The translations under genes and the position numbers were made by a program. A DNA stretch of 47,427 nt from Myxococcota bacterium. GTDB lineage: Bacteria > Myxococcota_A > UBA796 > CAJQPC01. Below are positions 18,294 through 32,019 of this stretch, in pieces. The stretch spans positions 1-47,427 of the forward strand of contig JAZAMN010000063.1 in the NCBI GenBank assembly GCA_036229005.1, written 5' to 3'. Within the stretch, counting starts at the first letter, position 1; every line of letters begins with the position of its first letter. The notes under the pieces are model-generated. The model did not search any database. It was given only the letters and a program-made list of their open reading frames with translations, and was not told the DNA's origin.

Positions 18294-20192
18294 CTACTGG
18301 CAGAAGCCGCCGGTGCGCACGGTCTCGTTGTTGGCCTCGGAGCACTCGCCGATGGCGCTGGCGCCGGTGCCGTCGTCGTCGACGACGACCCAGAGCTTGT
18401 CTGCGCGCATCAGGTCATCGCGGGTGAGCTCGGTGACCTGGGCGTTGCCCGTCCAGCCAGCGGGGATCAGCTCCTTGGTCTCCACGGTCCCGACCAGGGT
18501 GCGGGTCCCGCCGTCGTCGGCGTAGAGCGCCAGCGACACGCCAGCCTCCAGGTCGACCTCGGCGTAGTTGAGCACCCGCCAGGTCACGAACACGCGGTTG
18601 ACGGCGCACTCGTCCTCGCAGACCTCCAGGATCTCCACGGCCAGGTCCATGCCGTCCTCGAAGGGGGAGGACTCGGCCAGCGCGCCGTGCCAGGTGTTGT
18701 GGTCCTGCCAGGCGTACTGGGGGCCGGCGGGGATGGTCCCGTCGTCGTTGATGTTGTTGATGCTGTAGCCGTGCTGGTTCCACAGGGGGCGCGCGTCGGC
18801 CCAGGTGGAGTCGGCGTCGCCGTATACGCTCATGGGCTTCATGCCGCCCAGGGGCGAGTTGTGGCAGACCAGGATCTCGGCGTTGTGGTCCCCATCCACG
18901 TCGGCGATGGTGGGGTAGTCGAACATGGTGTTCGAGGCGTGCTCGGTGCTGTAGAACTTGATGCCGCCGGTGGACCCGTCGAAGGCGATCATCTGCACCT
19001 CGTCGATGTAGACGACCTCGGGCTGGCCGTCCCCCTCGAAGTCGAAGATGCTCGCGCCGGTCGCGCCGGACTCATCGGTGGCGGCCGCGGACCAGAGCAC
19101 CGTGCCGTCGTGGTTGAGCGCCCACAGCTCGTTGCCGCCGGCCACCACGATCTCGGGCATGCCGTCCAGGTCGATGTCGCCGATGGCCGGGGTGCTCAGG
19201 ATGTTGGCGGAGGGGATGGTGATGGGGCCCCACTTGACCGTGCCGTCGTGCTCCATCGCGCGCACGCTGGCGCCGGAGATGGCGACGATCTCGCCCTCGG
19301 GATCGGAGTCCAGGTTGGCCACGCCCACCATGCCGTCGGTGAACTCGGCGTTGTGCCAGATGGTGGAGCCGTCCTTGTTGTAGGCGGCGTTGCCCACGAT
19401 GACCTCGGCCTGGCCGTCCAGGTCCAGGTCAGCGACGGCGGACACGGCGGTCTCGGAGATGTAGAGGTCGCCAAGCTGGCTGATCCCGTAGCTCCCGTGC
19501 CCGTGCTCGCCTACACCGATGGTCGCGCCGGTCTCGGCGTTCAGGATGGCGGCGCCGACGACCAGCTCAGCCACGCCGTCACCGTCCATGTCGGCGAAGG
19601 AGGGGGCGGCGGAGCCGTCGTAGACGGGAGCGCCCACGTGCTCGGACTCCCAGATCAGGTTGCCGTTGTGGTCAAGCAGCAGAGTGCTGTACTCGCCCTC
19701 GGAGAAGGAGAAGATGCCGTTGACGTACTCCTTAATGATAGCGATCTCGAAGTCGCCGTCCCCGTCGATGTCCGCCACCGCGGGGATGGAGCCCGCGCCC
19801 GCCTGCAGGTCCTTGGACCAGACGGTGCCGCTGCCGTCTCCGGCCTCGTTGTAGAGGGTGGCGGGGCTGGAGAAGCCGTCGTTGACCAGCACCAGCACGT
19901 TGGGCAGGCCGTCGCCGTCCAGGTCCGCGACCACAGGCAGGCTCAGGCAGCCGCCGCTGGCGTTCATCTCCCACTCGATCTCGGGGGTGAAGCCGGGGGG
20001 CAGCTCGTCGGGACACTGGTCCGAGGTCCCGATCTGCATGGGCTCCCAGTTCCCGGGCTTGCACTCCTCGGGGAGGTCGGCGATCAGGCCGGTGTCATCG
20101 CCGGAGGCGGTGTCGTCGTTGCCTCCGTTGTTGTCGTTGTTTCCGACCAGCCGGTAGTCGTTGCAGGCAAGCGCCAGCACGGCGAGCAACAT
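18294..20192 (-). CDS. FG-GAP/VCBS-repeat lipoprotein with C-terminal CARDB-like domain
   Basis: LALAC lipobox, repeated ADLDGDG..EI motifs, and C-terminal VVDDDG...ECSEANN. Confidence 0.88.
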   Translation of the reverse strand: MLLAVLALACNDYRLVGNNDNNGGNDDTASGDDTGLIADLPEECKPGNWEPMQIGTSDQCPDELPPGFTPEIEWEMNASGGCLSLPVVADLDGDGLPNVLVLVNDGFSSPATLYNEAGDGSGTVWSKDLQAGAGSIPAVADIDGDGDFEIAIIKEYVNGIFSFSEGEYSTLLLDHNGNLIWESEHVGAPVYDGSAAPSFADMDGDGVAELVVGAAILNAETGATIGVGEHGHGSYGISQLGDLYISETAVSAVADLDLDGQAEVIVGNAAYNKDGSTIWHNAEFTDGMVGVANLDSDPEGEIVAISGASVRAMEHDGTVKWGPITIPSANILSTPAIGDIDLDGMPEIVVAGGNELWALNHDGTVLWSAAATDESGATGASIFDFEGDGQPEVVYIDEVQMIAFDGSTGGIKFYSTEHASNTMFDYPTIADVDGDHNAEILVCHNSPLGGMKPMSVYGDADSTWADARPLWNQHGYSINNINDDGTIPAGPQYAWQDHNTWHGALAESSPFEDGMDLAVEILEVCEDECAVNRVFVTWRVLNYAEVDLEAGVSLALYADDGGTRTLVGTVETKELIPAGWTGNAQVTELTRDDLMRADKLWVVVDDDGTGASAIGECSEANNETVRTGGFCQ

Positions 20193-22176: not shown

Positions 22177-22521
22177 TCAACCCTGGGTGTAGCGACGCAG
22201 GCGGTTGGCCATGCGGTCGGTGCCGTTGCCGGCCCAGCGCTTGACGGGCTCGCCGTTGACGTAGATGACGTTGGTGGGCAGGTCGTTGACCTCGCCGAGC
22301 CAGGGGGTGGCCTTCTTCCACTTGCCCAGGCCGCCCTTGTCCAGGAGGATCTTGGCGAAGCGGACCTCGCCGAACTCGCTGTCCTCCTCCAGGAAGCTCT
22401 CGAGCTCCTCGGTCCAGGCGTTGCAGGCGGCGCAGGTGGTCTTGCCGAGCAGGATCATGGCCACGGGGGCGTTGACCGCTTCCTCCCAGGTGTCGCGTTC
22501 CAGTACTTCGAGCTTGGCCAT
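22177..22521 (-). CDS. Thioredoxin-family protein
   Basis: CAAC (CxxC) motif, LPT cis-Pro loop, NGE and GGAGG RBS. Confidence 0.85.
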   Translation of the reverse strand: MAKLEVLERDTWEEAVNAPVAMILLGKTTCAACNAWTEELESFLEEDSEFGEVRFAKILLDKGGLGKWKKATPWLGEVNDLPTNVIYVNGEPVKRWAGNGTDRMANRLRRYTQG

Positions 22522-22656: not shown

Positions 22657-23181
22657 TCAGCCGACGAACTCGTCGCCCTTCTTCCAGTCGGCGCCGCAGA
22701 GGCCACCGGACTGGAGCGCCTGCACGGTGCGCAGGGTCTCGTGGGGGGAGCGGCCAGCGTCGAGATCGTTGATGGTCTCGGAGCGGACGATGCCCTTGTC
22801 GTCGACGATGACGGTAGCGCGGAAGGCGACACCGGCGTCCTCGAAGAGGTAGCCGAAGGCCTTGGTGACGCTGTGGTTGGTGTCAGCGATGACGGGGTGG
22901 GTGATCTTCTGCTCGAAGGTCTTGCCGTCGTTGAACCAGGCGTTGTGGGAGTGCCAGGAGTCGGTGCTGGCGCCGATCACGGCCACGCCGTCGTCCGCGA
23001 AGTCCTCAGCGAGGGACTCGAAGCCGCGGATCTCGGTGGGGCAGACAAAGGTGAAGTCCAGCGGGTACCAGTACATGACGTACCACTTGCCAGCGAAGTC
23101 GCTGCTGCTGATGACCTTCTCCTCGCCGTTGACGTAGGCGACGGAGCTCCACTCGGGGGCGGGCTTGCCGACGTTGCTCAT
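22657..23181 (-). CDS. ahpC: 2-Cys peroxiredoxin (AhpC/TSA family)
   Basis: YPLDFTFVCPTE, GRS and C-terminal LCGADW. The start MSNVGK has a GGGAG RBS. Confidence 0.93.
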   Translation of the reverse strand: MSNVGKPAPEWSSVAYVNGEEKVISSSDFAGKWYVMYWYPLDFTFVCPTEIRGFESLAEDFADDGVAVIGASTDSWHSHNAWFNDGKTFEQKITHPVIADTNHSVTKAFGYLFEDAGVAFRATVIVDDKGIVRSETINDLDAGRSPHETLRTVQALQSGGLCGADWKKGDEFVG

Positions 23182-23298: not shown

Positions 23299-25053
23299 TC
23301 AGTGGTTGGAGTTCGTGGCCCCGGGAGAAGCCAGGATCTCGCTGGCAAACTCTGGGTTCACGGCCCCGATCCCCTCGTCTCCCTGGTAGGCGCTCCAGTT
23401 CTGGGGGTCGCTGCCGTCTCCGGGGACCAGTGCCCGCTCCATGGAGCGCACCTTGCCGTCGGTGCCGAGCCCACCAGCGAACGCGCCGCCGCCGTCTCCG
23501 ACGGTGTCCACGACGTTCCCGCGGGGGTCCATCAGGAAGAGCTCCAGGGAGCCGTCCTTGATGTAGAGGCGGGACTGGCGGTTGTCGTTGAAGGCGTTGA
23601 CGACCATGTCGCCCCAGGTGTAGGCGCTGTACTCATCCTGGGGAGCCCCGTCCTCGTATGCCTCCAGGACGTGATCCACGATGAGGAAGGTCTCACCGGC
23701 CTTGATGGTGGTCCCAGGGGGGAGACCGACCGTGAAGTCGTCCACTCCCGTGATCTGCCACATGTCGAGCTTGAGGTCGCGGTCGGTCATGTTCCGCAGC
23801 TCGATGAACTCGTCGAAGCCTTCGTTGTCCGCGGAGTGGGCGCCGTACCACATGACCTCGTTGATCACGACGTCGCCGGGCTCGATGCTGTTGTAGAGCT
23901 CGCCGTCGGGGGCGTCACCGACGAAGGTGTACCCCATGTAGGTGCCGTTGTCCCAGAGGCTGGTGAAGTAGTCGGCGTAGGCCTCGGCCACGCGACCGCC
24001 CTTGAACACCAGCAGGTACTCGTCGTTGCTGACGGTCGCGGAGGAGCTCCAGTTGAAGGAGCCGGTGACCACGACGGGGTTCTCGCCATCGGCGTCGATC
24101 AGCATGGTCTTGGAGTGCAGGCGACCGCCGCCGGCCTGGTAGTCACCGGGCTGCTTGGAGGAGTCGTTGCCGTCCAGGCGCATGGGGATCTGCGCGCCCA
24201 TCAGGCGGTAGACCTCGTGGTACTGGCCGTTGGAGTGCATCTGGGACTTGTCGACCACGCCGGCCACGCCGTAGCGGGGATCCGAGCCGCTCAGGCCGTC
24301 CCAGAGGGCGTCGTCGCCGTGGAGCTCGGCCAGCTCCTCCTGCTTGCGGATGAACGCGGAGCCCACCTGGTCCTTGGTGAAGGCGAAGATGGTGAAGCGC
24401 ACGGACTCCTGGGCGCCGTCGACCAGCTCCAGGATGCGGCCCATGCTGTCCTCGTTGGGGGAGAACCAGACCTCGACCTCGGTGTCACCCAGGGTGTAGC
24501 TGCGGCCGTTGTGGAGCTCGACCTTGGAGTGCCCGAAGGCGCCGCCCCACATCTGCTCGAACTCGGCCTGGAAGTCGGCGGCCACGGCCGGGCTGTCCAT
24601 GAAGGCGAAGTTGTTGGAGTTGTGGATGAGGTCGGTGTCGGTCCAGTTGGCGGTGCCGCAGAACACGTAGCGGCCGTCCACGATCATGAACTTGTGGTGC
24701 ATGATGTGGGCCTGGTTGCCGGTGACGATGGGGATGTCCCGGTCCAGGAAGGTCTGGTAGCCGCTGTTGTAGAGGTGGCCGGCGTCACCGACCATGCGCA
24801 CCACAACGCCGCGGTCGTGGGCCCGCACGAAGGCGTCCACGACGTCCTGCTGGTAGAAGCCCATCACGGCGAAGTCCAGGGTGGCGTCGGCGGAGTCGAT
24901 GAGCTCGACCATCACGTTGACGACGTCCGGGTACCAGAGGTTCTCCAGCCGGGTGCCCGGCTCGTTGAAGAAGGTGTCGACGCGGCCGCCGCGGGTGCTG
25001 TCCAGGTCCTCTTCGGAGGGGGCGCAGGCGAGCAGGAGGAAGAGCGGGGTCAT
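23299..25053 (-). CDS. PLD-superfamily (Nuc-like) lipoprotein with two HKD motifs and a C-terminal lamin-tail domain
   Basis: LLLAC lipobox, HHKFMIVD..GTAN, HSKTMLID..GSFN, and LTD motifs VVINEV...DEFIELRN...SPG. Confidence 0.9.
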   Translation of the reverse strand: MTPLFLLLACAPSEEDLDSTRGGRVDTFFNEPGTRLENLWYPDVVNVMVELIDSADATLDFAVMGFYQQDVVDAFVRAHDRGVVVRMVGDAGHLYNSGYQTFLDRDIPIVTGNQAHIMHHKFMIVDGRYVFCGTANWTDTDLIHNSNNFAFMDSPAVAADFQAEFEQMWGGAFGHSKVELHNGRSYTLGDTEVEVWFSPNEDSMGRILELVDGAQESVRFTIFAFTKDQVGSAFIRKQEELAELHGDDALWDGLSGSDPRYGVAGVVDKSQMHSNGQYHEVYRLMGAQIPMRLDGNDSSKQPGDYQAGGGRLHSKTMLIDADGENPVVVTGSFNWSSSATVSNDEYLLVFKGGRVAEAYADYFTSLWDNGTYMGYTFVGDAPDGELYNSIEPGDVVINEVMWYGAHSADNEGFDEFIELRNMTDRDLKLDMWQITGVDDFTVGLPPGTTIKAGETFLIVDHVLEAYEDGAPQDEYSAYTWGDMVVNAFNDNRQSRLYIKDGSLELFLMDPRGNVVDTVGDGGGAFAGGLGTDGKVRSMERALVPGDGSDPQNWSAYQGDEGIGAVNPEFASEILASPGATNSNH

Positions 25054-25057
25054 GGTC

Positions 25058-26182
25058 TCACCGGGCCTGGGAGGCTGCGTGCTCCCAGAGGGCGATCAAG
25101 GCGTCCATCTGGGCGTTGGAGTCACTGCCGGGGGCGTCGTAGTCGTCCAGCACCCAGAGGCTGCCGTCCAGGAGCTGGTCGGTCAGCACGGTGGCACCCC
25201 GGTTGAGGCGAGCTGCGGAGACGACGTCATGGGACAGGCACATCGCCTTGGCGGTGTTCCAGGTCCCCCGGCGGTCGATCTGGGTGTCGACGAGGACAAC
25301 CGTGGGTACCACGAGTCCGTCGGGAAGCTGGCTGAGGGGCACGCCGGTGTCCTCCAGCGTGCTCGACAGGGAGCGGTTGGCCTCCTTGAAGTTGGGGCCC
25401 ACGATGACCTGGACGTCGAAGCCGTCCTCGTACTTGGCCTGCAGCGCGTTCGCGAGGCCCTCGTCCAGGAAGTCGTCCGTCAGCACGTAGATGTTGGAGC
25501 GGGCGCCGTAGCTGGCGTCCACGATGCGCTTGATGAGGCGCTCCTGGGGGCCGAGCCACACCTCGAGCTGCTCGTCGGACTGGGTGCCGTAGAGCCAGCG
25601 GTTGTCCGCGACGGACTTGGCGAGCGAGTCGTAGGCCGTCAGGGAGCTGGCGTCGGAGCCGCCGAAGATCTGGTTGTGCTCGATGTCCCAGTCGTAGGAC
25701 AGGTCCTGTCCGGTGGCGTGGATCATCCAGCGCATGCCGTCGCCGGGGAGCAGGCTGGAGGCGTTGAGCACCTCGGAGCGGTCCACGACCATGGCGGTGT
25801 GGGTCATCCGCACGTCCTCGGAGTCCCAGGCCACGTCGGCGTTGAGGCTGAACTCGAAGTAGGCCACGGCGTCGTCGCCCAGGGACACGGGCACGCCGGC
25901 GTCCTGGAGGGCCACGATGCCGGAGTCTTCGGCGGAGTCGATGTCGGTGGCGACGGCCACGCTCAGCCCGTCCTCGTATGCGGCGATGATGGCCGCGGTG
26001 AGATCGGCATCGACCAGGCCCGGGAGGAGGACCGCGAGATCGGAGGTGGCTCCGTCAGCCGCTTCGATGAAAGCGTCGATGACGGCGTCCCCACCGCTGG
26101 CGTCGGTGTAGGTCTCCACCGTGACCACGTTGAAGGCCTCGGTGGTGTCGGGGGCGGCGCAGGCCAGAAGGAGCAGGATCAT
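25058..26182 (-). CDS. PLD-fold lipoprotein with degenerate HKD motifs (pseudo-enzyme)
   Basis: Aligns by eye with the neighbouring PLD: MTHTAMVVD vs MHHKFMIVD, and EVWLGPQE.LIKRIVD vs EVWFSPNE.SMGRILE. Confidence 0.75.
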   Translation of the reverse strand: MILLLLACAAPDTTEAFNVVTVETYTDASGGDAVIDAFIEAADGATSDLAVLLPGLVDADLTAAIIAAYEDGLSVAVATDIDSAEDSGIVALQDAGVPVSLGDDAVAYFEFSLNADVAWDSEDVRMTHTAMVVDRSEVLNASSLLPGDGMRWMIHATGQDLSYDWDIEHNQIFGGSDASSLTAYDSLAKSVADNRWLYGTQSDEQLEVWLGPQERLIKRIVDASYGARSNIYVLTDDFLDEGLANALQAKYEDGFDVQVIVGPNFKEANRSLSSTLEDTGVPLSQLPDGLVVPTVVLVDTQIDRRGTWNTAKAMCLSHDVVSAARLNRGATVLTDQLLDGSLWVLDDYDAPGSDSNAQMDALIALWEHAASQAR

Positions 26183-26868
26183 TCGAAGGACCCCGTGCTG
26201 TAGGCGCCGGAGTAGTCCGGCGAGTTGGGGCGGCCCGGGCTGGCCAGGGTGTTCCGCTGGCAGTCTTCCGAGATGCGGTCGTTGTTGGCCACGTCGACCT
26301 CGGCCGGGGTGTAGTAGTGCCAGGCGGAGGGCTCGGTGCCGCGGCCGCCGAACATCAGCTCCACCTTCTCCATGGAGCGGGAGCGCACGTAGTCGTAGCC
26401 GCCGGCGTAGGGGGGCATGTCCTTGGAGCCCGCGGGCTCGATCAGGCGCTCGTCGCTGTCCTTGAGGGTCAGGCGGAAGGGGTCGCCGTCGCCGAAGCGC
26501 AGCTTGGGGAGCAGCGCGTCGGGCTCGGGGAAGCAGCCGGTGTCCTTGGCGGCCAGGAAGACGTGCTCACCGACCTGGACCCAGAGCTCCTGGCGGATGA
26601 CGTAGGTCTCCTCGATGGTGCCCTCCTGGTCGATGAACCAACCCTGCAGGTTGATGGGGCGCACGCCCTCGTTCCGGATCTCCACGAACACGTCGCTGGC
26701 GTCCCGGTTGCCGTCGTTGTCGACGGAGCCGGACCAGAGGACCTCGGAGATCTTGATGTTGCCGCGCTCACCGCTGCTGGTGCCGTCGGAGCTGTCGGTG
26801 CCATCCCGATAGCCGACCTGCTCCAGCCGGCCTTCAGGGGCGCCACATGCCAGGAGGAACAGGAGCAT
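26179..26868 (-). CDS. Lamin-tail-domain lipoprotein
   Basis: MLLFLLAC lipobox, IKISEV...FVEIRN....INLQGW and ASPG.PN motifs. Confidence 0.8.
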   Translation of the reverse strand: MLLFLLACGAPEGRLEQVGYRDGTDSSDGTSSGERGNIKISEVLWSGSVDNDGNRDASDVFVEIRNEGVRPINLQGWFIDQEGTIEETYVIRQELWVQVGEHVFLAAKDTGCFPEPDALLPKLRFGDGDPFRLTLKDSDERLIEPAGSKDMPPYAGGYDYVRSRSMEKVELMFGGRGTEPSAWHYYTPAEVDVANNDRISEDCQRNTLASPGRPNSPDYSGAYSTGSFE

Positions 26869-28415
26869 CAGAACCTCACGCTGGTGCCCACGCTCACGGA
26901 CCAGGGGGTGGCCTCGCCGTCCCAGCCGAGCTGGCTGCCGGCGATGCGCGAGACGGGGATCTCGTAGAACGCGCCGGGCATGAACAGCGCCCCGTTGCCG
27001 CGGAGCTGGACGTTGTCGGTGAACTGGTAGAAGAGGTCCACGTCGGCCTCGTGACCGAGCAGCTCACCCATGCGGGCCTGCGCGGCGAACTCCTCCCGGG
27101 AGTAGCCGAAGGGGGTCTCGACGGAGTCGAGGCTCTCCAGGTCGGTGTAGGTCACGCCCATGTCCTGGAAGGTCCACCAGCGGCCCTGCACGGTGAGCTT
27201 GCCGAAGTCGTAGCCCAGGCGGGCGTGCAGCACGCGGGTGCCGGACTTGCGTGCGATCTCGTGGGGCGAGTCGCTGACGCCGAACATGCCGACGTAGGCG
27301 CTGGGGTGCCAGCCCATCAGGCGGTCGGCGAACACGCCACCGGTCTGGCGGGCCTTGAGGCCGACGTAGCCGTGGCTGTACTGCAGGCCGGAGTCGCCAG
27401 AGGCGTTGCCGTAGGAGGCGCCGTCAGCCTGGAAGTAGGAGAGCTCGCCGCGGACGCCGGTCTCCTCGCCCTTGGCCATGGAGACACCCAGGGTGTAGGC
27501 CATGCCGTTGGTGTCGATGTCGCGGGCCACCAGCTCCTTGCGGTCGATGCCGCGGGAGGCGTCCACCGAGAAGTAGGGGGTGAAGGTGTCGGCCACGGTG
27601 ATGTTGCCGCGGACGCCGACGTTGGCGACCCAGTCGTTGTCCGAGAAGTTGCCCAGCAGGCCGCCCTCGGAGATGTCCGAGCCGGTGCCCAGGGCGCCCA
27701 CGTCGGTGTAGAAGCCGTAGGCGCGCAGCTCCACGTTGTCCTTGGGCTCCAGGGCCAGCACACCGCCGGTGCGCTTGGTCATGTGGTCACCGCGGAAGCC
27801 GTAGGTCTGGGTGGTGGACTGGCCGGCGTAGGACACGAAGTTGGCGTTGTCGTTGGAGCTGGACATGCCGACCACGTTGATGGGCAGCAGCTCCAGGTGG
27901 CCGATCTCGCCCAGGGGGATGTCCACGCGCACCATGTCGATGACGTCCGCGTAGATGTAGTCGCGGGCGCCGCCAAGGCCGCCGATCTCGTAGTACTGGC
28001 GGCCGACGCGGGCGGTGAAGGCCTCGCTGGTGGGGGTGAACTCCCCGTACATGGCCGTGAAGTAGACGAAGCCGCCGAACTGGTTGACGACGCCGATCTG
28101 GTCGTTGCCCCAGAGGCCTCGGTGGGAGGCGCCCAGCACGAAGCGGGTGACGCCGGCGTCCTGGTCCAGGGTGTGGGCCAGGTTCAGGTAGGCGCCGGAG
28201 AAGGCGAAGGAGTTGCGGTCGTCCGAGTCGAAGATGGCCTGGTCGCTGCTCTCATCCAGGGAGCGCAGGTCCAGGTTGTCGTACTCGAACCACTGGGCCT
28301 CGAAGCCGCCGGAGACTTCGGTGGTGCCGGACCCCTCGATCTGGGTGTCGCGGTACTCGAGGTCCCGGTCGTCCTGAGCAAAGGCGACGGCGGAGATGGC
28401 AATCAGCAGGTTCAC
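26868..28415 (-). CDS. Outer-membrane beta-barrel protein (porin/alginate-export-like)
   Basis: Signal ending AFA-Q, RVGRQ, LLGHEAD and FMPG motifs, alternating strands and a terminal Phe. Confidence 0.8.
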   Translation of the reverse strand: MNLLIAISAVAFAQDDRDLEYRDTQIEGSGTTEVSGGFEAQWFEYDNLDLRSLDESSDQAIFDSDDRNSFAFSGAYLNLAHTLDQDAGVTRFVLGASHRGLWGNDQIGVVNQFGGFVYFTAMYGEFTPTSEAFTARVGRQYYEIGGLGGARDYIYADVIDMVRVDIPLGEIGHLELLPINVVGMSSSNDNANFVSYAGQSTTQTYGFRGDHMTKRTGGVLALEPKDNVELRAYGFYTDVGALGTGSDISEGGLLGNFSDNDWVANVGVRGNITVADTFTPYFSVDASRGIDRKELVARDIDTNGMAYTLGVSMAKGEETGVRGELSYFQADGASYGNASGDSGLQYSHGYVGLKARQTGGVFADRLMGWHPSAYVGMFGVSDSPHEIARKSGTRVLHARLGYDFGKLTVQGRWWTFQDMGVTYTDLESLDSVETPFGYSREEFAAQARMGELLGHEADVDLFYQFTDNVQLRGNGALFMPGAFYEIPVSRIAGSQLGWDGEATPWSVSVGTSVRF

Positions 28416-28424
28416 GGTGCTTCC

Positions 28425-29258
28425 TCAGCCGTCCAGCACTTCGAGCTGGCCGACGTTCATGATGACGATCTGGTATTCGCTGTAGCTCAAGAGCACGGGG
28501 CCGGTGACCTGGACGGTCTGACCGACCTCGGGGGCCCACTTGCGGCGGTTGATCTCCGAATCCAGGGAGACCAGGTGCTTGCTGCCGGAGGCGTCCTCGA
28601 GCTGGAACTGGCCGAAGGTGTCGGCCTCGCGGGTGACCACCCCGGTGACGCGCTTGACCAGGGCCATGTCGCTGGCTCCCAGGCTGCGTCCCTCGACCAC
28701 CTCGTAGTAGATGGCGCTGTAGTCCCGCTCCACGGACACGATGTCGTGGGCGTAGATCATGGGCAGGTCGTAGTTGGTCTTGGTGGCCCGGACGGTCATC
28801 ACCACCCGGTCACCCACGTCGAAGTGGGCCACCTTGGAGTCACCCAGCACGAACAGCCCGCCGGTGTCGTCCTGGATGAAGTAGCTGCCGTAGTACTTCT
28901 CGTCGGAGGACCGGTCGCAGCCCTGGGTCTTGAAGTAGAAGCGCGGGTGCAGCGTGACCACGCCCTGCACCGTCATGGGCAGGGAGCTGTCCGTGCTGGT
29001 GTCGCAGTCGGCGTCGTCGCTGAGGGCGTCCTCGGGGGCGTACACGATCTCGCCGGCCGTGGCCGTCTCGATCACGTCGTCCTGCAGGTCCGAGATGGAC
29101 ACCACACCGTCGACCGCCGGCAAGGAGTAGTTCTGGTCGGTGAACGCGATGGGCTCACTGACGTCGAACATCTCGCCGGAGTCGTACCAGGCGCTCCAGT
29201 CTTCGGCCTGCTCGCGGACATCGCAAGCGAGCAGACCCAGGGCAAGCAACATGGGCAT
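28425..29258 (-). CDS. Lipoprotein with tandem OB-folds (DUF5689/YhcR-OB-like)
   Basis: VQGVVT...YFIQDDTGGL.V...VGDRV and VTGVVT...LED.SG...VGQTVQVTG...YQI motifs. Confidence 0.75.
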   Translation of the reverse strand: MPMLLALGLLACDVREQAEDWSAWYDSGEMFDVSEPIAFTDQNYSLPAVDGVVSISDLQDDVIETATAGEIVYAPEDALSDDADCDTSTDSSLPMTVQGVVTLHPRFYFKTQGCDRSSDEKYYGSYFIQDDTGGLFVLGDSKVAHFDVGDRVVMTVRATKTNYDLPMIYAHDIVSVERDYSAIYYEVVEGRSLGASDMALVKRVTGVVTREADTFGQFQLEDASGSKHLVSLDSEINRRKWAPEVGQTVQVTGPVLLSYSEYQIVIMNVGQLEVLDG

Positions 29259-30088
29259 CAGTCGATCCAGTCGAACCAGTCGAGGTCGCTCACGTCCATC
29301 TGGTCGGCGCCGGAGTAGGTGCCCAGGGGGACGACCACCTGCGCGCAGTCACCCTGGACCACGCCCTTGGAGCTGAGGATGCGCAGGGTGGTGGTGTTCG
29401 CGCCGTACTGGAAGTCGAAGCAGGTGTAGGAGGTGCTGCCGCCGCACTCCACGCCCTCGTCCATGATCTCGCCCCAGGCGTACACGAACTGCTCGGCGTG
29501 GGTCTCGTAGGACAGCGTGGTGTTGTTGCCGTCGGTCAGCCACACCTTGTCGGAGCCGGTCACGGTGACCTCGCCCATGGCGGTGATCTCCAAGGTGCCG
29601 TAGTAGTTCTTGATCTCGGTGGCGGTGAAGCTCACCACCTCGCCGCCGCTCAGAGCCACGCCGGGGTCGACGTAGTAGGTCCGGACGGTGCCGTTGACGT
29701 CGTTGAACCAGATGTTCGAGGGGTTGGAGCCCTCGGGGTAGTAGCCCACGGCCCCGACGACAGCGCCGGTCACGACCCACTCACCGGTCAGGGTCTCGCC
29801 CTCGGCGGGCTTGTCGGCGATGATGGCGCCCAGGCCAGCGTCGGTGGTGTAGGGGTTGGCCCCGACCACAGCGCCGTCTGCGCCAAAGAGCTCCTCGTAC
29901 ACGGGGGTCGCGCCGCTGATGTCGCAGTCGGCGTCACCATCGGCGTCGGTGTCGGTGTCGGTGTCGGAGTCCGCGTCGGAGTCCGCGTCACCCTCGACGA
30001 CGGGGCCGGTGTCCTCGGGGGGGCCCTTGGTGCAAGCGGCCAGGGCGATGGGAAGGCTGAGTGCAAGCGCGAGGCGAAGCATCTTCAT
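29258..30088 (-). CDS. Lipoprotein with Asp-rich linker and OB-fold-like domains
   Basis: AGGAG RBS, start MKMLRL, LAAC lipobox, DADSDADSDTDTD linker and IWFND.NG...GEVVS...YYGTLEI. Confidence 0.75.
   Translation of the reverse strand: MKMLRLALALSLPIALAACTKGPPEDTGPVVEGDADSDADSDTDTDTDADGDADCDISGATPVYEELFGADGAVVGANPYTTDAGLGAIIADKPAEGETLTGEWVVTGAVVGAVGYYPEGSNPSNIWFNDVNGTVRTYYVDPGVALSGGEVVSFTATEIKNYYGTLEITAMGEVTVTGSDKVWLTDGNNTTLSYETHAEQFVYAWGEIMDEGVECGGSTSYTCFDFQYGANTTTLRILSSKGVVQGDCAQVVVPLGTYSGADQMDVSDLDWFDWID
29927..29989 (-). repeat. Coding 6-bp tandem repeat encoding (D-A/S/T/G)n
   Basis: Runs of gtcggt/gtcgga/gtccgc encoding DADSDADSDTDTDTDADGDAD. Confidence 0.85.
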
Positions 30089-30228
30089 CTGGGACTCCTG
30101 TTCGAGTTTGCGCCCTGATACCCCATTGGGGCTCTCCGTGTGTTTCGGGAAAGCAACAGAAGGCCGGGCCACAGCAAACTGACAGGCCCCGCAGAGCCTT
30201 GCGCTACCCTTGTGCGCCCGGAGGAACG

Positions 30229-32019
30229 ATGCCCCCCCTGATGCTGCTCATCGCGCCGCTCGCCTACGCCGACGGCCTGCCTGCAGCCTCCCAGGACGGC
30301 GCCCCACTGGACGCTGGGATCCCCCTGCACCAGGCGCCGAGCGGCCAGTGGTACCAGGAGGACGTTCCGGTCTGGCGCACCGGCTCCCTGATCGTCTCGC
30401 TGGAGGAGGGAGAGGACCCGGAGTGGCTGTCCGCCCTGCCGGGCGTCGCCTCGGTGGACCACCTCCCGGGCCTGCACGCCACCTTCAAGCTGCTCATGGA
30501 TCCCGGCGCCGACGAGGTCATGCTGGCCGTGTCCCTGCAGGGCGCCCCCGGCCTGCGCTACGCCCACCCCAACCTGGCGGTGGAGCTCCACCCCACGGCG
30601 CTCCCCGACGATCCCCTGCTGGCCGACCAGTGGCACATCGAGAACAGCGGCCAGCGCAGCGAGACGGCCTGGCCAGGCGCCGACGCCAACGTGGTCCCGG
30701 CCTGGGAGACCACCTGGGGAGAGGGGCAGCTCATCGCGATCCTGGACTCCGGGGTGGACACCGCGCACCCGGACCTGGACACCGTCCCCGGGTTCACCCC
30801 CAGCGCCGGCGAGGACGAGAACCCGGACCTGGACTATTCCGGCCACGCCCACGGGACGGCCTGCGCGGGGCTGGCGGCGGGCACCGGGGACAACGGCATC
30901 GGCGTGGCGGGGGTGGCGCCCGCGGCCCAGGTGATGGGCGTGCGCCTGCTGGGCGAGATCCAGGAATACGCGGACATCTACGAGTCCATCGTCTACGCGG
31001 TGGACGGCGGCGCGACCGTGCTCTCCAACTCCTGGGGCATGGGGGAGGGCTGCCCGGCGTACACCCTGCCCGGGGTGGTCAAGGACGGCCTCTACTACGC
31101 CGAGGAGGTCGGCCGCGACGGGCTGGGCAGCGCCTGGGTCATGGCCATGGGCAACGACGGCTGCGACGCCAGCAGCGAGGGCTTCTTCCGGGTCAGCTCC
31201 ACCATCGCGGTGGGGGCCAGCACCGACCAGGACGCGCTGGCCGACTACTCCAACTACGGCGCCCGCATGGACCTTGTGGCCCCCAGCGGGCAGAGCGGGC
31301 GCCCCATGCTGCTGACCACCGACATCTCCGGCAGCGAGGGCTACGGCGCCTACCTGGGGGACGCCGACTACACCGGCCAGATGTCGGGCACCTCGGGCGC
31401 GACCCCCATCGTGTCCGGGGCGATCGCCCTGATGTTCGCGGCCAACCCCCGCCTGGACATCTGGAGCCTGCGCGAGGTCCTCTGCGAGACCGCGGTGCGC
31501 GTGCGCCCCGAAGAGGCCCAATACGACGACGAGGGCCGCAGCCTGCACTACGGGTGCGGGCGCATCGACGTGGCCGCCGCGGTGGCCGCCGTCGCCAACA
31601 CCGCCCCGGCGGCGCCTGTGCTCTTGACGCCCAGCGGCGAGATCTACCTGGACCAGGCCACCCTGCGCTGGGAGCCGGCCGTGGACCCCGACGCCGAGGC
31701 GCTCAGCTACGAGGTCGAGTTCACGCCGGCGAGCAACCCCGAGGGGAGCTGGTCGGTGGAGACCTCGGAGACCGCGCTGGATCTGCGACCCGATGTCCTC
31801 GCTGGTGAGGGGGTGTCCTTGCGGGTGCGCGCGGTGGACGCGTGGGGTCCAGGGGTGTGGAGCGATGCGGTGGCGCTCACGATCCTCTCCGACCCGACCC
31901 CTCCGGAGACGCCGACGGCGTCGGGCTGTCAGAGCGCGCCGGGGACCGCCCCCGGGGCCTGGTTGTTTGCGCTGGTTGTTGGAATGATCGGCCTCAAACG
32001 CCGGGAGTTGCGCGCATGA
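30229..32019 (+). CDS. S8 subtilisin-like serine protease with Fn3-like domain and MYXO-CTERM-like tail
   Basis: ILDSG, HGTACAG and GTSGATP triad, C-terminal SGCQS...WLFALVVGMIGLKRR, and a GGAGG RBS before the ATG at 30229. Confidence 0.93.
   Translation: MPPLMLLIAPLAYADGLPAASQDGAPLDAGIPLHQAPSGQWYQEDVPVWRTGSLIVSLEEGEDPEWLSALPGVASVDHLPGLHATFKLLMDPGADEVMLAVSLQGAPGLRYAHPNLAVELHPTALPDDPLLADQWHIENSGQRSETAWPGADANVVPAWETTWGEGQLIAILDSGVDTAHPDLDTVPGFTPSAGEDENPDLDYSGHAHGTACAGLAAGTGDNGIGVAGVAPAAQVMGVRLLGEIQEYADIYESIVYAVDGGATVLSNSWGMGEGCPAYTLPGVVKDGLYYAEEVGRDGLGSAWVMAMGNDGCDASSEGFFRVSSTIAVGASTDQDALADYSNYGARMDLVAPSGQSGRPMLLTTDISGSEGYGAYLGDADYTGQMSGTSGATPIVSGAIALMFAANPRLDIWSLREVLCETAVRVRPEEAQYDDEGRSLHYGCGRIDVAAAVAAVANTAPAAPVLLTPSGEIYLDQATLRWEPAVDPDAEALSYEVEFTPASNPEGSWSVETSETALDLRPDVLAGEGVSLRVRAVDAWGPGVWSDAVALTILSDPTPPETPTASGCQSAPGTAPGAWLFALVVGMIGLKRRELRA

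Follow-up and report, generated by a model that had tools for sequence, protein, structure and literature searches.

What does an envelope operon do when its six genes encode an outer-membrane barrel without a TonB plug and five predicted lipoproteins, among them a pair of phospholipase D (PLD)-fold paralogues of which one lacks the catalytic motifs? The operon is located on the minus strand, from 30088 to 23299, of contig JAZAMN010000063.1 (assembly GCA_036229005.1, from a bacterium of the phylum Myxococcota), and the window analysed here is that whole stretch of 47,427 nucleotides. A preliminary description, made from the sequence letters, had noted six co-directional genes with overlaps or gaps of at most 9 nt and had proposed a system for capture, degradation and uptake of extracellular nucleic acid. 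The six open reading frames were found to be co-directional and intact, without internal stops, and to be joined (g1 to g6, in order) by junctions of −1, +9, −1, −4 and +4 nt; their G+C content at third codon positions is 0.94 to 0.97. We conclude that these six genes form a genuine envelope operon, which is strongly co-inherited and apparently has not been described before. That it captures, cuts and takes up outside nucleic acid as food is a reading to which we assign about an even chance. The features are as follows.

g1, 29258 to 30088, minus strand, 276 amino acids (aa): predicted lipoprotein with an Asp/Thr-rich linker and a tandem OB fold resembling DUF5689; accessory, often duplicated, strongly acidic

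g2, 28425 to 29258, minus strand, 277 aa: predicted lipoprotein with a tandem OB fold in which basic and aromatic residues are conserved; may bind nucleic acid as a partner of the barrel

g3, 26868 to 28415, minus strand, 515 aa: predicted 18-strand outer-membrane beta-barrel, AlgE/OccD-like, without a TonB plug; distant relative of the LA_2168 family

g4, 26179 to 26868, minus strand, 229 aa: predicted lipoprotein with a single lamin-tail domain (LTD) and a conserved C-terminal tail

g5, 25058 to 26182, minus strand, 374 aa: predicted lipoprotein and paralogue of g6 with a tandem PLD fold; HxK(x4)D motifs absent, hence a putative pseudo-enzyme

g6, 23299 to 25053, minus strand, 584 aa: predicted lipoprotein with two PLD repeats and a C-terminal LTD; candidate nuclease

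Intergenic region between g1 and a divergent S8 peptidase gene, 30089 to 30228: presumed promoter region, with a Shine-Dalgarno-like AGGAG before g1

The evidence that the genes belong together comes from their distribution and order. Profiles of the barrel (g3) and of g6 were searched against 401 Myxococcota genomes drawn evenly across the phylum. Each was detected in 74 genomes, and 73 of the 75 genomes holding either one held both; the two with only one are fragmented assemblies. The barrel was present in 33 of 34 genomes of family f18 (g6 in 34 of 34), in 20 of 21 of family f3 and in 1 of the 11 further genomes of the family to which the window belongs; in several large families no barrel was found among the genomes searched. 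The operon is nearly single-copy, and occurs in almost all sampled genomes of two families. Named barrel homologues include those of the cultured Bradymonadia Bradymonas sediminis, Persicimonas caeni, Lujinxingia species and Microvenator marinus, from which f18 is likely to be the Bradymonadaceae. Among 65 wide loci (64 distinct), 49 had enough flanking DNA for order to be counted. The order g3-g4-g5-g6 was kept in 47 of these, the exceptions being a split g4 (L102) and a g6 on another contig (L093); g2 to g6 were in order, with g2 adjoining g3, in 43; all six genes were present in 41 and contiguous in 37. In f18, 16 of 17 loci hold all six in order, and wherever a Myxococcota locus has flank, g4 comes directly after the barrel gene. 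Conservation of gene order across Myxococcota, which the preliminary description had left to be checked, was therefore confirmed. Because relatives are not independent, these counts do not amount to a statistical test; the order is kept across several families, and the operon is more than a chance arrangement. The genes flanking the operon recur only within families, and given such variable flanks the unit is self-contained. In the barrel tree, sequences group largely by family and order, a pattern that fits vertical descent with loss. The split g4 of L102 (L102:7959-8781) consists of two open reading frames, reflecting a frameshift or an assembly error.

A hydrophobic leader followed by Cys is encoded by g1, g2, g4, g5 and g6, and this Cys is kept by almost every aligned homologue. 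The leader of g3 contains no Cys, and the C-terminal residue of the protein is Phe. From the starts of g4, g5 and g6 (26868, 26182 and 25053), and from that at 20192, only 7 to 9 residues precede the Cys and no basic n-region is present. The short leaders of the window's lipoproteins are fixed by overlap with the preceding stop codon, and homologue medians are 11 to 16 residues. We looked in the intergenic region (30089 to 30228) for a sigma-70-like site, a terminator or an Rfam match, and found none. RNA libraries of two studies (X1; X3/X4) yielded contigs 99 to 100% identical to pieces of all six genes, but this is weak evidence of expression because DNA carry-over is possible.

Is the barrel an importer of the SusC kind, or something else? 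The preliminary description had called g3 a non-TonB barrel, and the structural model agrees: it is an 18-strand, AlgE-like barrel without a TonB plug, whose best fold match is AlgE. No Pfam match was obtained for g3, and none of the six proteins matched SusC or SusD; polysaccharide utilization loci (PULs) of the SusCD type pair a SusC-type TonB barrel with a SusD lid, and the barrel class of the operon is different. The Alginate_exp family (PF13372) did not match the window's g3, but gave weak matches in 19 of 84 barrel homologues at E ≤ 0.1 (best, 9e-8); Atlas clusters with 20% PF13372 were also obtained. The fold and these weak matches would suit export of polysaccharide, since AlgE and the myxobacterial EpsX, ExoB and WzpB have the same 18-strand fold and such barrels export polysaccharide in Myxococcus (PMC9601211; the papers cited by PMC number were covered in part, and statements taken from them apply to those parts). 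However, no glycosyltransferase, Wzx/Wzy, OPX protein or synthase was seen among the recurrent neighbours in the 65 loci (by crude gene calls, with selected representatives compared with Pfam), and the window's g3 has no polysaccharide synthesis or OPX genes nearby. The constant partners of the barrel are instead PLD, LTD and OB lipoproteins, and we regard polysaccharide export as very improbable.

With the Pfam cut-off for the LTD (PF00932) at 34.3 bits, both g4 (35.2 bits) and g6 (52.1 bits) were above it, as the preliminary description had held, and the C-terminal tail of g4, DY[ST]G..., was found in 47 of 47 aligned rows. The g6 protein matched PLDc_2 in two stretches (130.5 bits). Its two HxK(x4)D motifs, each with G[ST]xN, were invariant in 19 of 19 aligned rows, as were the residues H119/K121/D126/N136/N148 and H313/K315/D320/N334/E345; both motifs were present in 55 of 56 full-length homologues, the remaining one being masked. 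In contrast, g5 gave a weak PLDc_2 match (E 1e-4) and is a paralogue of g6 (hhalign probability 99.4), but none of 61 homologues has the HxKxxxxD motif; His128 is kept in 18 of 20, and the Lys is lost. The earlier assignment of g6 as active and g5 as inactive thus agrees with the motifs, from which g6 is a candidate for a catalytically active enzyme and g5 would be inactive. Since g5 is motif-less and yet well conserved, a binding or structural role is likely. A second, near-equal copy of g6 was observed far from the operon at G178:C1:8532374-8534095, in a one-contig genome with a single barrel.

Which substrate would g6 cleave? That it is a Nuc-like PLD, as first proposed, was borne out by profile comparison: NucT scored best (E 5e-15), followed by DrmC, and cardiolipin synthase was far worse (E 0.04). 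Among profiles of solved structures, Zucchini/PLD6, Nuc and NucT lead, followed by the Serratia-type phospholipase 7e0m (E 5e-10) and the PLD3/4 exonucleases. The HxK(x4)D and G[ST]xN motifs and the downstream N/E positions are common to g6 and the Nuc/NucT/Zucchini (PLD6) branch, its best sequence matches, but g6 differs in that a single chain holds both repeats together with an LTD and a lipid anchor, and in that it is paired with a motif-less paralogue. In PLD enzymes a pair of repeats generally makes up a single active site, and those of the Nuc type are not known to require a metal. Zucchini/PLD6 proteins are deposited as cardiolipin hydrolase, and therefore the fold of g6 cannot separate nuclease from phospholipase; this counts against a nucleic-acid function. 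If g6 were a phospholipase D acting on prey or on the cell's own membranes, the operon would scavenge phospholipid or remodel outer-membrane lipid, with the barrel passing head groups. The names of the top solved relatives and the match to 7e0m favour this, the PLD pair rather than the OB genes is the invariant core (see below), and a pore that is uncharged or acidic would be appropriate for choline or ethanolamine. The cardiolipin-synthase models, however, scored far below NucT, and the tandem-OB genes and a nuclease-like neighbour described below would be left unexplained, so that we think a lipid substrate unlikely.

The model of g2 is a tandem OB fold, nearest to RPA, Teb1 and the HIN domain of p202, and g2 gave weak OB-type Pfam matches, in agreement with the preliminary description. 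For g1 the same description had proposed an OB fold, which held, but a single one, which did not: g1 has two OB folds in tandem and is homologous to g2 (hhalign probability 97, E 5e-11, 143 columns). No Pfam match was obtained for g1 alone; its residues 82 to 276 matched a DUF5689 cluster in the Atlas predicted-structure search (TM-score 0.62/0.68), and it also matched clusters of LTD+OB+EEP nucleases. For DUF5689 itself (PF18942), 7 of 19 g2 homologues matched below the Pfam cut-off (best E 0.003), and in genome G053 the sole match, again below the cut-off, was g2. The g1 gene is missing or displaced in several loci, and its variable copies elsewhere suggest a variable binding module. Expansions take the form of triple or double fusions or of extra copies on either side of g2 (L093:1-2508; L087:11624-13564; L037, L042 and L106). 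Two tandem g1 paralogues with Ser-Asp repeat linkers and near-identical N-termini occur off the operon at G000:C73:106868-108708 (L123:7869-9697, minus strand), with no adjoining PLD, LTD or barrel gene. At L094:6112-9000, the second OB domain region of a g2 homologue is interrupted by some 630 residues of calcium-binding repeats of thrombospondin type 3.

A described system with a related OB protein exists. The ddbABCDEF locus of Bacteroides thetaiotaomicron comprises six genes for DNA utilization, including nucleases and a TonB-dependent transporter, and is required for DNA depletion; the gene adjoining that of the transporter encodes DdbD, a DUF5689 protein whose model resembles p202 (4JBM) (PMC12478041). 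Both are six-gene envelope loci with a PUL-like logic, in which a barrel lies beside a tandem-OB, p202 HIN-like lipoprotein (of DUF5689 in ddb, resembling DUF5689 in the operon) and secreted nuclease candidates. They differ in that DdbC is TonB-dependent whereas g3 is an 18-strand barrel without a plug, in that ddb has three nucleases of shown activity whereas the operon has one PLD-type candidate, a pseudo-PLD and an LTD lipoprotein, and in phylum, the DUF5689 similarity of g1 and g2 being below the Pfam cut-off. The operon is not a member of the ddb group, because transporter and nuclease are unrelated, but by analogy it likely works in a similar way. The statement that no described system has this composition needs qualifying, for it had overlooked ddb, which has the same logic and a related OB protein but another transporter and other nucleases. 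The pairing of an LTD and tandem OB folds with an extracellular nuclease is also seen in ExeM of Shewanella oneidensis and YhcR-like nucleases (PMC6085458); those are single polypeptides with an EEP catalytic domain and no barrel, whereas the operon has separate lipoproteins around a PLD. In family f33, 5 of 6 loci (L089, L090, L095, L096 and L112) have an EEP lipoprotein gene head to head with g1; the best match of this EEP gene, below cut-off, is the ExeM/NucH model. No description of the six-gene unit was found in the literature searched (subscription journals and bioRxiv supplements lay outside its coverage), nor in the parts covered of PMC7690421, PMC8289736, PMC11509652, PMC5406399, PMC2387172 and PMC10100824.

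The ddb locus is related to Riemerella transformation genes (PMC12478041, PMC8459023), which raises a competence function. In such a DNA-import gate, the OB lipoproteins would capture DNA, the barrel would pass a strand, and trimming by g6 in the periplasm would precede ComEC; Riemerella RS04915/RS04920 and cyanobacterial ComA have been proposed to act in this manner. In Riemerella anatipestifer the DUF5689 protein RS04920 lies beside an outer-membrane barrel handling outside DNA (RA0C_RS04915/RS04920), and both are essential for transformation (PMC8459023); DNA-binding and endonuclease domains have been described in ComA (PMC7690421), and the nearest folds of g2 include single-stranded DNA binders. 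ComEC and DprA were found in 5 of 5 carriers tested, but also in 10 of 14 control genomes, and hence their presence says little. The Riemerella barrel is TonB-receptor-like, no PLD or LTD genes are described with it in the text covered, and its shown role is transformation (PMC8459023). No com gene occurs among the recurrent flanking families of the operon, the pore is not basic, and an 18-strand pore with inward loops would, judging from AlgE and OccD, be narrow for DNA. Competence is accordingly a function that we doubt.

How old is the arrangement, and which genes are its core? A remote barrel subgroup, with members named Spirochaetia and Ca. Hydrogenedentota, was located at 10 loci in metagenome contigs. 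At L120 and L122 the neighbours of the barrel are an LTD protein and two PLD-LTD proteins, one with both motifs and one with none, so that each neighbour bears an LTD, and an OB gene was not detected at either locus. Since these loci keep the barrel, PLD, pseudo-PLD and LTD without a detected OB gene, the invariant old core, as read from gene content, is a barrel, an LTD lipoprotein, a PLD and a pseudo-PLD, to which accessory OB genes would be an addition. The remaining 8 of the 10 barrels (L113-L119 and L121) have unrelated genes on either side and no PLD- or LTD-type neighbours within the DNA examined; seven of them apparently belong to one lineage, and some contigs are short. The composition of the core could also mean that the barrel serves mainly as an anchor or export route for LTD-bearing lipoproteins, the PLD pair being cargo and no solute being imported. 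That precisely the barrel, LTD lipoprotein, PLD-LTD and pseudo-PLD(-LTD) are retained in both Myxococcota and the remote lineage speaks for such display, as do the LTD on every neighbour in L120 and L122, the invariant tail of g4, the exporter as best fold match of g3 and a suggested membrane-directing role for bacterial LTDs (PMC6085458). On the other hand, g1, g2 and g5 of the window have no LTD, the eight lone barrels have no LTD neighbour in the DNA examined, and no POTRA-like or other known translocon part was seen in the g3 model, making display improbable in our estimate.

A possible link to Leptospira came from the LA_2168 family model (NF047476, cut-off 250 bits): of 23 distant barrel homologues, 9 matched it weakly (best E 3e-10, 39 bits, far under the cut-off), and the window's g3 did not match it. 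The PLD lipoproteins listed for Leptospira include LA_2170 and LIC11754 (PMC10100824, PMC2387172, PMC5406399), and one published table gives LA_2170 as increased on macrophage contact (log2 3.0 for RNA and 2.1 for protein). LA_2168 would thus lie two genes from a PLD lipoprotein, by locus number, the synteny being read from the numbering only.

We return to the capture, cutting and uptake of nucleic acid. The components, folds and co-conservation on which the preliminary description had built this proposal were upheld, and the proposal gains support because DUF5689/p202-like OB proteins occur as in the ddb locus and because an ExeM-like EEP lipoprotein gene lies beside the operon in most f33 loci. 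Several results weigh against it, besides the cardiolipin-hydrolase names, the remote loci without OB genes and the lone remote barrels. AlgE, the closest fold to g3, is an exporter. The conserved lumen-side charges on the barrel strands are 10 acidic and 4 basic by a crude parity count, and those over the whole of g3 are 18 acidic and 13 basic, unlike an arginine ladder. The g1 protein is strongly acidic (−11 per 100 aa), like background lipoproteins, with almost no conserved basic residue. DUF5689 exceeded its cut-off in none of 5 genomes scanned, and the gene families that recur in the flanks showed no nucleoside transporter or nucleotidase (crude gene calls, selected representatives compared with Pfam). 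Finally, the window's own genome has pyrB, purM and purE.

The last point concerns the physiology of the carriers. All Bradymonabacteria genomes are reported to be without a complete purine pathway (Mu et al., PMC7460792), and G053, of family f18, gave no match for purM, purE or pyrB. Nevertheless, of 5 carriers tested, 4 have purM and purE, the window's genome being one of them, and pyrB is nearly universal. Nucleotide auxotrophy therefore does not explain the distribution of the operon, and salvage is one possible use. Within f18, 29 of 34 genomes had a match to the pyrB model, for the most part with scores below those of other families, whereas most Bradymonabacteria are reported to be without aspartate carbamoyltransferase (PMC7460792); a divergent PyrB may have been missed in that study, or the f18 label may cover other strains.

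If the operon does feed on nucleic acid, g2 and the variable g1 copies would bind outside DNA or RNA, as proposed for DdbD, and g6 would cleave it as a metal-independent Nuc-type nuclease with a single active site formed by the two repeats. The g5 protein would be a non-catalytic partner binding the substrate or g6, and g4, together with the LTD of g6, would dock the enzymes on the barrel, through which nucleotides, nucleosides or short oligonucleotides might diffuse without TonB energy. In prey-dependent Bradymonadia, many of which are without purine synthesis, the products would feed salvage from lysed prey; in other carriers the operon may supply phosphate, nitrogen or bases. A wider proposal, which we put forward tentatively and hold to be more doubtful than nucleic-acid feeding itself, is that of an undescribed old class of outer-membrane machine, in which an AlgE-type barrel works solely with a PLD nuclease pair, one active and one pseudo, and with an LTD adaptor. 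Its range would run from Myxococcota to lineages related to spirochaetes, and might take in Leptospira LA_2168-LA_2170. Predatory Bradymonadia would have added tandem-OB capture lipoproteins to the machine, giving TonB-independent feeding on prey nucleic acid by purine auxotrophs.

The genes on either side of the operon are kept as neighbours only within the genus. Downstream of g6, on the same strand, are a peroxiredoxin (AhpC/TSA) gene and a thioredoxin-like gene (22657-23181 and 22177-22521), the former covered nearly end to end by RNA-library contigs. Upstream, at 30229-32019, is the divergent S8 subtilase gene, whose product has a C-terminal tail that we take to be a sorting tail of the myxobacterial type.

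The operon is compact, near-universal among the sampled genomes of two families and represented by barrel homologues in cultured strains that are non-pathogenic, and is therefore directly testable. It offers a handle on bacterial lamin-tail domains and on a strictly conserved pseudo-PLD, and even if g6 is a phospholipase, the unit remains an undescribed conserved envelope machine. Were the PLD-barrel machine class real, it would represent a second, independently assembled DNA-utilization system, built from other parts than the one of gut Bacteroides, and bacterial lamin-tail domains would gain a defined job as barrel-docking modules. The operon bears on how nucleic acid may cross the outer membrane of diderms when neither a TonB transporter nor a pilus secretin is involved, and on how prey-dependent Bradymonadia cover their missing purine synthesis.

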